From a virus (lineage: Duplodnaviria; Heunggongvirae; Uroviricota; Caudoviricetes): a stretch of DNA of 7,566 nucleotides. A model generated the notes under the pieces. The model saw nothing but the letters and a program-made list of their open reading frames with translations, did not search any database and was not told where the DNA came from. The stretch's first letter is position 1, and every line of letters starts with the position of its first letter. The stretch lies in the IMG/VR virus record IMGVR_UViG_2698536559_000017. One strand, given 5' to 3'. This document shows, piece after piece, positions 58-762 of the stretch. A program made the position numbers and the translations under genes.

Positions 58-363
58 CTATTCCTGCTCTTTGACCTTGCGTCGCTGGAGTTCTTCACGC
101 GCGACGGTGACGAGTTGCCCGATCTCCTCGGCGGCTTTGACTCCGATTTTTTCCACCTGCGCTAGGGCATCGAGCGAAGAAACCAGGAGGTTTTCTCCGC
201 TTCCTTCTGCCTGGCGGCGGGCGATTTCACCGCGCATGGCGGTTACTATGAATCCGGCGTTGCTTTCACCGTCCAGTTTTACGGATTCCATGCCTTCAAT
301 AACATCATGCGGGATCCGAGCTGTCAGTGATTGTGATTTTGCGTTTTTTGAACCTGTAGCCAT
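58..363 (-). CDS. putative ribbon-helix-helix (Arc/CopG-like) DNA-binding regulator, divergent from the replication operon
   Basis: Minus-strand ORF 58..378 in the track. The second in-frame ATG (363..361) has GAGAGG 7 nt upstream, so a 101-aa product MATGSKNAKSQSLTARIPHDV... is preferred; the first ATG overlaps that RBS. The N-terminal SLTARIPHDVIEGMESV segment has the short beta-strand then helix pattern typical of RHH proteins. The overlapping plus-strand ORF 2..445 is Ser/Cys/Arg-rich and judged spurious. Family assignment is by motif recognition only. Confidence 0.5.
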   Translation of the reverse strand: MATGSKNAKSQSLTARIPHDVIEGMESVKLDGESNAGFIVTAMRGEIARRQAEGSGENLLVSSLDALAQVEKIGVKAAEEIGQLVTVAREELQRRKVKEQE

Positions 364-384
364 CTGTAATCCTCTCAATGAAAG

Positions 385-459
385 TGTAAGACAATATACA
401 CATAAAAAGTCTTACATAAAAGCATTGACATGTAAGCACCTATAAATAAAGTTACTTAC
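385..459. promoter_or_regulatory. divergent promoter/operator region with two palindromes TGTAAGAC-N16-GTCTTACA (385..416) and TGTAAG-N17-CTTACA (431..459), plus a consensus TTGACA hexamer at 425..430
   Basis: Inverted repeats read directly from the sequence. They sit between the minus-strand regulator gene (start 363) and the plus-strand operon. TTGACA at 425..430 is a perfect -35 for plus-strand transcription; the matching -10 is ambiguous (TAAAGT at 447..452 with a 16-bp spacer is the best candidate). Confidence 0.55.
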
Positions 460-558
460 ACCTTGTTAATGCAAGGTGCAGAAACGACGAAACCCCGCAC
501 TGTAGGAGCAGTAACGGGGCTTCTAACCACCAACGATAGCAAGATTATCGAGGCAGCT

Positions 559-762
559 ATGAGAAATCATACCATACACCCGCAAGGGCGGGACTCGTAC
601 AACCTGAATAAATACATCTGGCGTTTTATCGCCCTGAGCACCGCACAACCGCGCGTGATTCACATCGTGGCCACCAGCGAACAGGAAGCACGCCAGCAAT
701 CCCCGGCTGGCTGCGTGATGGTATTCGCCGCCCGTATTCGTCAGGGGGTGTGCCATGCCTGA
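559..762 (+). CDS. Icd-like small protein (host cell division inhibitor Icd family), 67 aa from ATG 559
   Basis: Track ORF 463..762 begins at a TTG. The in-frame ATG at 559 has GAGG 7 nt upstream. The product ...YIWRFIALSTAQPRVIHIVATSEQEARQQSPAGCVMVFAARIRQ matches my recollection of the conserved pattern of Icd-like proteins of P4-type elements (FIxA ... ATSEQEAR ... FAAR). The start is uncertain: ATG 469 would give 97 aa. Confidence 0.55.
   Translation: MRNHTIHPQGRDSYNLNKYIWRFIALSTAQPRVIHIVATSEQEARQQSPAGCVMVFAARIRQGVCHA

Follow-up and report, generated by a model that had tools for sequence, protein, structure and literature searches.

A divergent promoter with exchangeable repeat sites, a putative ribbon-helix-helix repressor and a structured leader RNA in a Gram-negative phage-inducible chromosomal island that carries P4-type replication genes

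Introduction

Which protein controls the promoter of the replication genes in a small chromosomal island of Escherichia coli, and is this control exerted through the short repeats that lie between these genes and a divergently oriented regulator gene? The question is raised by a stretch of 7,566 nucleotides (IMG/VR virus record IMGVR_UViG_2698536559_000017; the whole stretch is called the window in the following), in which a gap of 195 bases separates the start codons of a gene for a 101-amino-acid (aa) YlcI/YnfO-family protein and of a gene for an Icd-like protein, the first of an operon that also encodes a P4 alpha-like helicase. The window DNA is a 100% match to E. coli strain 2015C-4136CT1, where it belongs to a chromosomal island adjoining rcnR (locus L001). 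Of 5426 complete E. coli genomes, 1335 (about one quarter) match part of the region. An initial annotation of the window, made from its letters alone, had described the gap (363-559) as a genetic switch with two palindromic operators.

In the present analysis the observation itself was confirmed: the TGTAAG repeats and the promoter are real. The interpretation as a switch is supported by the comparison of related loci. With a probability of roughly 0.75, positions 363-559 make up the control region at the heart of a phage-inducible chromosomal island (PICI), in which a small ribbon-helix-helix (RHH) repressor acts on back-to-back promoters through four sites (A to D), the repressor gene and its sites form an exchangeable cassette, and the rightward transcript begins with a structured leader RNA.

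A protein search returned 256 relatives of the regulator in Enterobacterales. A scan with one genome per species gave 44 related loci from many genera, to which 8 further E. coli islands were added (about 50 loci in all). In the locus comparison, position 1 is the ATG of the regulator gene.

Repeated sites and promoters in the divergent intergenic region

The regulator gene and the elements in the gap are as follows.

58-363, minus strand: regulator gene, 101-aa YlcI/YnfO-family protein with a predicted RHH domain (residues 9-53, approximately) and a C-terminal helical domain (56-100)
371-376, minus strand: GAGAGG, the Shine-Dalgarno sequence for the regulator, with 7 nt between it and the ATG at 363-361, read from the sequence
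385-392, plus strand: site A, TGTAAGAC, overlapping the predicted leftward transcript start at about 386
393-398, minus strand: predicted -10 hexamer of the leftward (regulator) promoter, TATATT
409-416, minus strand: site B, TGTAAGAC on the minus strand, overlapping the spacer and the weak -35 region of the leftward promoter
425-430, plus strand: -35 hexamer of the rightward promoter, TTGACA, found by a promoter scanner
431-436, plus strand: site C, TGTAAG, beginning directly after the -35 hexamer, inside the promoter spacer
447-452, plus strand: -10 hexamer of the rightward promoter, TAAAGT, after a 16-nt spacer
455-460, minus strand: site D, TGTAAG on the minus strand, overlapping the predicted rightward transcription start at about 458-460

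The hexamer TGTAAG is present four times in alternating orientation, at 385-390 (plus), 411-416 (minus), 431-436 (plus) and 455-460 (minus), and has one further copy in the window, at 2779. Two inverted repeats result, TGTAAGAC/GTCTTACA at 385-392/409-416, with 8-nt arms and 16 nt between them, and TGTAAG...CTTACA at 431-436/455-460, with 6-bp arms 18 nt apart, for which a repeat finder returned a version with 14-nt arms and 79% complementarity. A third pairing, CTTACAT/ATGTAAG, was found at 411-417/430-436. The promoter scanner called TTGACA-16-TAAAGT (425-452), with 10 of 12 matches, as the sole plus-strand promoter-like site in positions 1-1400.

The half-site that the initial annotation had seen in both palindromes was thus recovered in all four copies at 385-460, and TTGACA was found at 425-430. 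The dimensions had to be corrected. The spacers, given earlier as 16 or 17 nt, are 20 and 18 nt between the hexamers, the value of 16 nt applying to the 8-bp arms of the first palindrome only, and the -35 hexamer is not overlapped by the palindromes; it lies between them, abutting the left half-site of the second and outside any arm.

Conservation of positions and divergence of site cores

The layout is shared by the related loci. A site at about positions 24-34 is followed by an adjacent TATACT/TATAAT-like hexamer on the minus strand (42 of 44 loci), equivalent to TATATT in the window and always equally far from the rightward -35 hexamer, and by an A-rich tract. Next come a second site at about 49-57 in loci with long-form regulators, TTGAnn at position 65 (again 42 of 44, the same position as in the window) and a third site 4-5 nt further on. 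TAnnnT is located 16-18 nt after the -35 hexamer in 41 of 44 loci, and the last site lies over the predicted start. A CTCC or CCTC motif occupies the Shine-Dalgarno position of the regulator gene in the relatives, and the leftward promoter combines a good -10 with a poor -35 hexamer in nearly all loci. The divergent promoter postulated earlier is borne out by the conserved position of its elements in 41-42 of 44 loci.

In contrast to the positions of the sites, their sequence is not conserved: the core varies between loci and is repeated within each locus. In the case of site A, the distance to the ATG of the regulator gene (about 24-34 nt) is conserved in the 44 loci, and the core is particular to each locus. 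The identity between sites A and C is 7.6 of 12 bases within a locus versus 4.6 between groups, and 0 of 100000 permutations gave a value as high. The TGTAAG core is found in the window and in Enterobacter soli, GTGTGTTTCA in Xenorhabdus, Photorhabdus and one E. coli, and GTGTATTTCA in many short forms; GGTGGTGTTCA, GTGCGATTCA, GTGCTATTCA and GTGTGATTCA characterize further groups, and GTGTTTAACAC, GTGGCTGACA and GTGGGCCACACC other E. coli islands. A flanking GTG is common to most site types. The regulator-plus-site cassettes represent at least 12 putative specificities in Enterobacterales. Site B is kept in long-form relatives and missing from most short-form relatives; short-form cassettes keep sites C and D and lack B.

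The copies of the site are inverted in some cassette groups and direct in others. Since both orientations occur, the conserved feature is probably a repeated protein site and not a hairpin. The palindrome can consequently no longer be regarded as the operator unit, as the initial annotation had it: the conserved unit is the repeated site, and several relatives carry direct repeats. Likewise, the conservation of half-sites that had been named as a check is seen for the positions, which are fixed in 44 loci, and not for the core sequence, which is locus-specific. One cassette group, with the strand SLQVSVRLP in the regulator (L037 and L040-L045), has three direct-repeat sites, GGTGGTGTTCACC, which contain TGTTCACC, the octamer of alpha-type origins.

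Assignment of the sites to the divergently encoded regulator

Three lines of comparison point to the divergent YlcI/YnfO protein as the partner of the sites. Among 34 non-redundant loci, the similarity of sites follows that of the predicted nine-residue beta-strand of the regulator (Mantel rho 0.59, p 2e-4) more closely than that of its whole N-terminal domain (rho 0.43) or of the Icd-like protein (rho 0.17). The three loci with the Icd-like proteins nearest to that of the window all have different cores, and locus L002 has the core of the window, yet its Icd-like protein is 37% identical.

The second comparison is between different protein scaffolds. E. coli AST216 (L052) encodes a 59-aa short-form regulator, which is a different scaffold with the strand SQSVTARIA (SQSLTARIP in the window), and carries three GTGTAAGACA sites; locus L021 has the strand SQSVTARIP and the core TGTAA[GT]. 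Three scaffolds with the strand SQS[LV]TARI, namely the long form of the window and L002, the short form of L052, and L021, hence have the TGTAA[GT] core in common.

The third is a natural exchange of the following segment.

98-457, no strand assigned: exchangeable specificity cassette (regulator gene minus its last 13 codons or so, four sites, both core promoters), L001 compared with L047

The island of E. coli SCU-123 (L047) occupies the same rcnR integration site as L001. The two are 95.4% identical over window positions -2999 to 97 and 95.5% identical over 458-3460, and they are non-homologous between. In L047 the segment 98-457 is replaced by a 59-aa regulator (strand SQTVAARVP) with three GTGTTTAACAC-type sites, one of which reads GTGTTCAACAC. 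The breakpoints are at 97/98 and 457/458, the right one coinciding with the predicted rightward transcription start. AlpA (WP_001075377.1) and the DUF6387 protein (WP_000163378.1) are identical in both islands. The genes of the rightward operon, among them those for the Icd-like protein and the helicase, belong to the DNA block with about 95% identity. Because AlpA, the Icd-like protein and the helicase are kept while the sites differ, they are excluded by this comparison as the specificity partner. To judge by this swap, regulator and sites evolve and recombine as one cassette.

The correlation with the strand, the 98-457 swap and the AST216 core all agree with the initial annotation in its choice of the divergently encoded RHH-like protein as the binder, and the assignment of the sites to this protein is supported by sequence comparison.

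The regulator protein

Residues 9-50 of the regulator match YlcI_YnfO_N (NCBIfam), and the family alignment reads strand-P-x-[DE]-V, helix, G-E-S, helix. The elements expected of an RHH protein, namely a strand and then two helices on either side of a G-x-S/T/N turn, are present in the window's regulator as a SLTARIP strand, a helix at 19-28, a turn at G32-E-S34 and a helix at 35-53. Strand residues 11-15 vary together with the site core, and R16 and P18 are invariant. The N-terminal domain models as an RHH fold with similarity to known members; AmrZ was the top fold match, and Arc, Omega and a CopG-family protein were matched as well. Pfam at default thresholds returned nothing for the regulator or for the Icd-like protein, and when the family profile was searched against PDB sequences, the sole result was a marginal helix-hairpin-helix hit in the C-terminal half (Hef 1x2i, E 0.009).

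In the long-form regulator, this half (about residues 56-100, window 58-195) is more conserved than the strand and forms one long helix in the AlphaFold model; short-form regulators have a basic tail in its place. YlcI of E. coli K-12, the namesake of the family (L055 5252-5446, lambdoid prophage DLP12), is 22% identical to the window's regulator. It is divergent from the small-terminase homologue nohD and adjoins cos, so that the N-terminal domain is found there in another gene neighbourhood.

The regulator gene is followed by a 59-aa basic open reading frame (ORF) (L001 11821-12000, minus strand), which ends one base left of window position 1. It is conserved, lies outside the swapped cassette, and is annotated in CFT073 (WP_000130015.1) and not in the window's strain. 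It matches no Pfam family or toxin family, the only match being phrog_21027, which has no assigned function. A type II toxin-antitoxin module with an RHH antitoxin was considered and rejected, as this sole downstream ORF matches no toxin family. Just after alpA (L001 11734-11753) there is a hairpin, GGCGACCG/CGGTCGCC, with a T-run on the minus strand only. Its form suggests that it terminates the regulator transcript and not that of alpA, and read-through from alpA into the convergent regulator gene would accordingly be possible.

A structured leader RNA upstream of the Icd-like gene

The region between the rightward start and the Icd-like gene, which the initial annotation had passed over, holds three hairpins.

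459-478, plus strand: first hairpin of the leader, CACCUUG...CAAGGUG, 5'-terminal in the predicted rightward transcript; a longer hairpin or absent in some relatives
489-523, plus strand: second hairpin of the leader, whose 9+4-bp stem contains an internal loop, followed by an invariant single-stranded ACCA (526-529)
534-553, plus strand: third hairpin of the leader (534-550) and ribosome binding site; the Shine-Dalgarno sequence GAGG (550-553) contributes its first G to the last base pair of the hairpin

In some relatives the Shine-Dalgarno sequence AGGAG is placed in the loop instead. The fold of the leader has a z-score of -4.1. RNAalifold on a MAFFT alignment recovered only part of hairpin 2, owing to insertions and deletions; the structure was therefore set by hand and its pairs were counted. 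On 35 distinct sequences 88.5% of the cells were paired, versus 30-41% in slid controls, and 12 of 18 pairs showed compensatory changes. A covariance model (R1) gave one match per element with 58-76 bits, including seven E. coli loci outside the model building. Elsewhere in 139 kb, P4 among them, the model had no match on the sense strand of the RNA; the four remaining hits were weak (13.6-17.8 bits) and came from the antisense strand of hairpin 2 at the same sites.

Rfam contained no family for the leader in the whole window and 13 relatives, while the P4 positive control was recovered with 74.9 bits (C4) and 60.8 bits (isrK); on 440-600 with E up to 10, the best match was RsaJ (11 bits, E 1.3). 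The leader is a covarying structured RNA without an Rfam family, located where P4 encodes its CI immunity RNA. Complementarity between the loop of hairpin 2 and the ribosome-binding region, as in C4/CI, was looked for by eye only and gave nothing consistent.

A reading of the leader as an N-terminal extension of the Icd-like ORF was prompted by PHROG 6196, which is 26 residues longer. An in-frame stop is present in only 5 of 36 loci, but the reading was rejected because of the RNA covariation and because conserved bases fall in two frames across loci.

A ProQ/FinO-family RNA-binding protein and a PerC-family regulator are encoded directly after the gene for the single-stranded DNA-binding protein (SSB), at window positions 4621-5414. 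The ProQ/FinO protein of the island is a candidate partner of the leader RNA.

The rightward operon, the probable origin and the island

The genes downstream of the leader and the probable origin are located as follows.

559-762, plus strand: Icd-like protein, 67 aa, first rightward gene (NF033153, 71 bits)
755-3195, plus strand: remainder of the operon, with a 106-aa ORF (755-1075), DUF4222 (1082-1381) and a P4 alpha-like helicase/origin-binding protein (1378-3195)
3203-3432, no strand assigned: probable origin of replication with eight exact TGTTCACC repeats in both orientations and degenerate copies

The ORFs of the operon overlap or abut. The first ORF of the P4 left operon (P4 8168-8365) belongs to the same NCBIfam family as the Icd-like protein (NF033153, 76 bits); BLASTP of the window's protein against it gave no alignment, and the link is made through the shared model and an intermediate sequence. 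The protein encoded by 1378-3195 aligns with residues 320-771 of P4 alpha only, which are the helicase and origin-binding part (51% identity), and its first 145 residues or so are without a match to the P4 primase domain. The octamer TGTTCACC is annotated in P4 as the type-1 ori/crr repeat. Altogether, the Icd-like gene, the C-terminal two-thirds of alpha and the ori repeats are all that P4 and the window's island have in common. As the sites overlap both core promoters and a P4-alpha-type operon followed by ori repeats lies behind them, control of the icd-like/alpha operon and hence of replication, as proposed initially, is a reasonable inference.

In PHROGs, the families to which the Icd-like protein has matches bear the label 'transcriptional repressor'. 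The last 65 codons of the P4 'cI gene product' coding sequence (CDS) (8168-8584; L046) are the Icd-like ORF, and the label probably derives from this old CDS; the real P4 CI is an RNA. P4 ORF106 was considered as the counterpart of the 106-aa ORF and found to be unrelated despite its equal length. The only Rfam matches in the window, to plant and animal miRNAs on the iterons at 3236-3416, are spurious.

The gene order of L001 is a tyrosine integrase, DUF6387, an AlpA-family regulator (Pfam Phage_AlpA, 58.8 bits) and the minus-strand gene for the 101-aa protein, followed on the plus strand by the Icd-like gene, the 106-aa ORF, DUF4222, a 'DNA primase family' gene, SSB, the ProQ/FinO-family protein and PerC. 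This is the layout of Gram-negative PICIs of the EcCICFT073 type, with integrase and alpA co-directional, a primase gene and the origin directly downstream, a definition that also calls for the absence of a set of structural or lysis genes of a phage. Packaging genes (rpp/terS) were not identified in the window, and no sid, delta or psu capsid-redirection genes are annotated in the 25-kb locus. The island was not placed among the P4-like satellites, being without sid/delta/psu and without C4/isrK RNA. By its gene content and order it is a Gram-negative PICI with a P4-type replication module.

Proposed mechanism and alternative explanations

We infer binding, repression, oligomeric state, cooperativity, transcription starts and the lifting of repression as follows. 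The rightward promoter, a strong predicted sigma-70 promoter starting at about 458-460, would drive the operon of the Icd-like and alpha-like helicase genes, and the weaker leftward promoter (TATATT at 398-393, poor -35) the gene of the 101-aa RHH protein. Dimers of this protein most likely bind through their beta-ribbon to the four sites of 8-10 bp with the core (G/A)TGTAAG, whose centres are 22-24 bp apart, or roughly two helical turns. Bound at C and D, they would cover the spacer, the -10 hexamer and the start on the rightward side and keep RNA polymerase out, so that replication of the island is off; at A and B they would lie over the start and the -35 region of the promoter that drives the regulator gene itself, which would result in autoregulation. 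The C-terminal helical domain probably links dimers on neighbouring sites, and the leader RNA in front of the Icd-like gene may provide a second level of control, after transcription. A helper-phage factor or antirepressor may relieve the repression; alternatively, relief may come from AlpA-driven read-through from alpA, which is upstream of and convergent to the regulator gene.

Several points weigh against this proposal. The fold matches of the regulator have modest Z values (2.8-4.4) and come from monomer models without a formed strand, although an unformed strand in a monomer is expected for a fold that is completed by dimerisation, and Foldseek on the full-length model found nothing. Four copies of some hexamer, judged within the window alone, are only moderately unlikely (about 0.01), a suggestive and not compelling figure; the observation is solid because of the comparative evidence and not because of the count in the window. 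The leftward promoter was not called by the scanner because of its weak -35 hexamer. The correlation between regulator and sites could be partly inflated by linkage, since both are adjacent. The spacing of 22-24 bp is wider than the approximately 11 bp of the classical Arc/Mnt operators, which makes the binding unit and the cooperativity uncertain. Finally, over-expression of AlpA alone induces EcCICFT073 (PMC6092414); any repression can thus be overridden, and its weight in the life cycle is uncertain.

Four other explanations were weighed, and the cassette swap, the positions of the sites or their change of orientation disfavour each of them. The repeats might be chance repeats in AT-rich DNA, or RNA or DNA hairpins instead of protein sites. 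Within the window alone this idea draws on the shuffling test, in which some hexamer (counted with its reverse complement) occurred four times in 54 of 5000 dinucleotide-preserving shuffles of 363-559 and in 32 of 5000 for 364-470, i.e. in about 1%. Across about 50 loci, however, the site positions are conserved and the cores change in concert, the change from inverted to direct orientation destroys any hairpin, and sites A-C lie upstream of the predicted rightward start, which leaves this explanation barely credible. It is very improbable, too, that another island protein (AlpA, the Icd-like protein or the alpha-like initiator) binds the sites and that the RHH protein is unrelated to them. 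AlpA is a known activator of EcCICFT073 genes, the Icd-like protein carries the PHROG repressor label, and the SLQVSVRLP group has the alpha iteron TGTTCACC in its sites; but L001 and L047 share the same AlpA and operon DNA of about 95% identity with entirely different sites, site similarity barely follows the Icd-like protein, the window's TGTAAG sites are unlike its own TGTTCACC iterons, and the repressor label was probably inherited from the old P4 CDS.

Two further explanations keep the RHH protein on its sites and change what it does there. It may autoregulate the leftward operon only (regulator and 59-aa ORF) in the manner of an antitoxin and leave the replication operon uncontrolled. 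This is unlikely, given that sites C and D occupy the spacer and the start of the rightward promoter in all cassette types, that short-form cassettes drop B and keep these two, and that the 59-aa ORF has no toxin family, matches phrog_21027 alone and is outside the swapped cassette. Or the protein may be an activator or dual regulator that, for example, turns on its own weak promoter via site B or fires the rightward promoter. A good -10 with a poor -35 hexamer, as seen on the leftward side in nearly all loci, is typical of activator-dependent promoters, and AmrZ, the top fold match, both activates and represses. Such a role is nevertheless improbable here, as the rightward promoter is near consensus (10 of 12) and on sequence grounds needs no activator, and as sites C and D between -35 and +1 are in a repressing position. 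Repression of back-to-back promoters by the RHH protein is accordingly preferred.

Comparison with known systems and significance

The proposed mechanism is of a classical kind. In P22 immI (Mnt/Arc), RHH repressors likewise act at two divergent promoters, Pant and Pmnt; there, too, a small RHH repressor gene is divergent from the silenced operon and the operators overlap back-to-back promoters. Mnt consists of an N-terminal RHH domain followed by a C-terminal helical oligomerisation domain, like the 101-aa protein; hhalign of the regulator against Mnt gave a probability below 1%, which is no significant sequence similarity. Unlike P22 immI, the window has four separate sites of 8-10 bp at distances of about 22-24 bp in place of a compact operator of 17-21 bp, the Icd-like/alpha replication operon in place of an antirepressor, and no evident second Arc-like regulator. 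In the Omega (pSM19035) and CopG systems, RHH dimers bind short repeats that are direct or inverted, in line with the variable orientation of the sites between cassettes. Omega binds contiguous 7-bp heptads, whereas the sites described here are two or more helical turns apart and embedded in two promoters.

The controlled operon is homologous to that of P4, whose immunity rests on the CI RNA (Rfam C4, seqA/isrK): an Icd-like gene comes first, alpha has 51% identity and the TGTTCACC repeats are the same. There is a parallel in P4 cI and P1 immI (c4-icd-ant) in that a structured RNA lies just upstream of an Icd-like gene. The window and 13 loci, however, have no C4/isrK match, the leader being a different structure, and P4 is without a divergent protein repressor, unlike the window's island.

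In Gram-positive PICIs, a master repressor keeps the island silent. Their Stl repressors are larger helix-turn-helix proteins, lifted by the binding of helper-phage proteins. The Stl/Rpr systems of these islands (SaPIs) have the same island layout and the same expected role, quiescence until a helper phage arrives, and differ in that the window encodes an RHH protein of a family with 59-101 aa, with the activator AlpA also on the island. In SaPIs the regulator gene is divergent from the primase/replication operon and the origin is next to it (PMC6092414).

For the Gram-negative PICIs, the founding paper described AlpA as activator, left the global repressor unclear and called the different induction strategy a mystery (PMC6092414). 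Its model island EcCICFT073 has the order int, alpA, YlcI/YnfO divergent from Icd-like, DUF4222, primase, SSB and PerC. The module between alpA and primase consists of the 59-aa YlcI/YnfO gene C_RS30120 divergent from the Icd-like gene C_RS30125, with the same promoter geometry and leader RNA and its own sites, GTGGGCCACACC twice and the variant copy GGTGGGGGACA. EcCICFT073 thus carries the short form (59 aa) with three sites and the window the long form (101 aa) with four. C_RS30120 and C_RS30125 are late RefSeq locus tags and were probably missing from the annotation used in the published model. A literature search of papers outside subscription-only access found none on YlcI/YnfO or an RHH regulator in these satellites.

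A wider proposal is offered tentatively, at somewhat short of even odds: YlcI/YnfO proteins may be the missing master repressors of EcCICFT073-type islands, with cassettes that set island immunity and perhaps helper specificity, AlpA overriding the repression, and the leader representing a new class of cis-regulatory RNA. If so, induction by AlpA would work by override, for example through read-through across the convergent regulator gene, and the three-hairpin leader with its invariant ACCA would take the place of the P4 CI RNA before the Icd-like gene. A candidate repressor, its sites and promoters can now be named for Gram-negative PICIs, a context that had also escaped the initial annotation, including the model island EcCICFT073. 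The natural cassette swaps provide ready specificity controls and a set of putatively orthogonal small repressor/operator pairs. The value of the findings lies in satellite biology and in the unnamed leader RNA and not in a new principle.

Additional observations

The Rfam int-alpA RNA (RF02996) was detected above the gathering threshold in three related loci (L033 5461-5529, L036 847-913 and L037 5469-5537) and not in the window's island. Within the window, two ORFs 3.7 kb apart (3621-3782 and 7312-7566) are paralogous, with 65% identity over 43 residues and the common motif GEGYA.AHPELISAFMTTAA; the region 3621-3782 is annotated in RefSeq as a frameshifted pseudogene.

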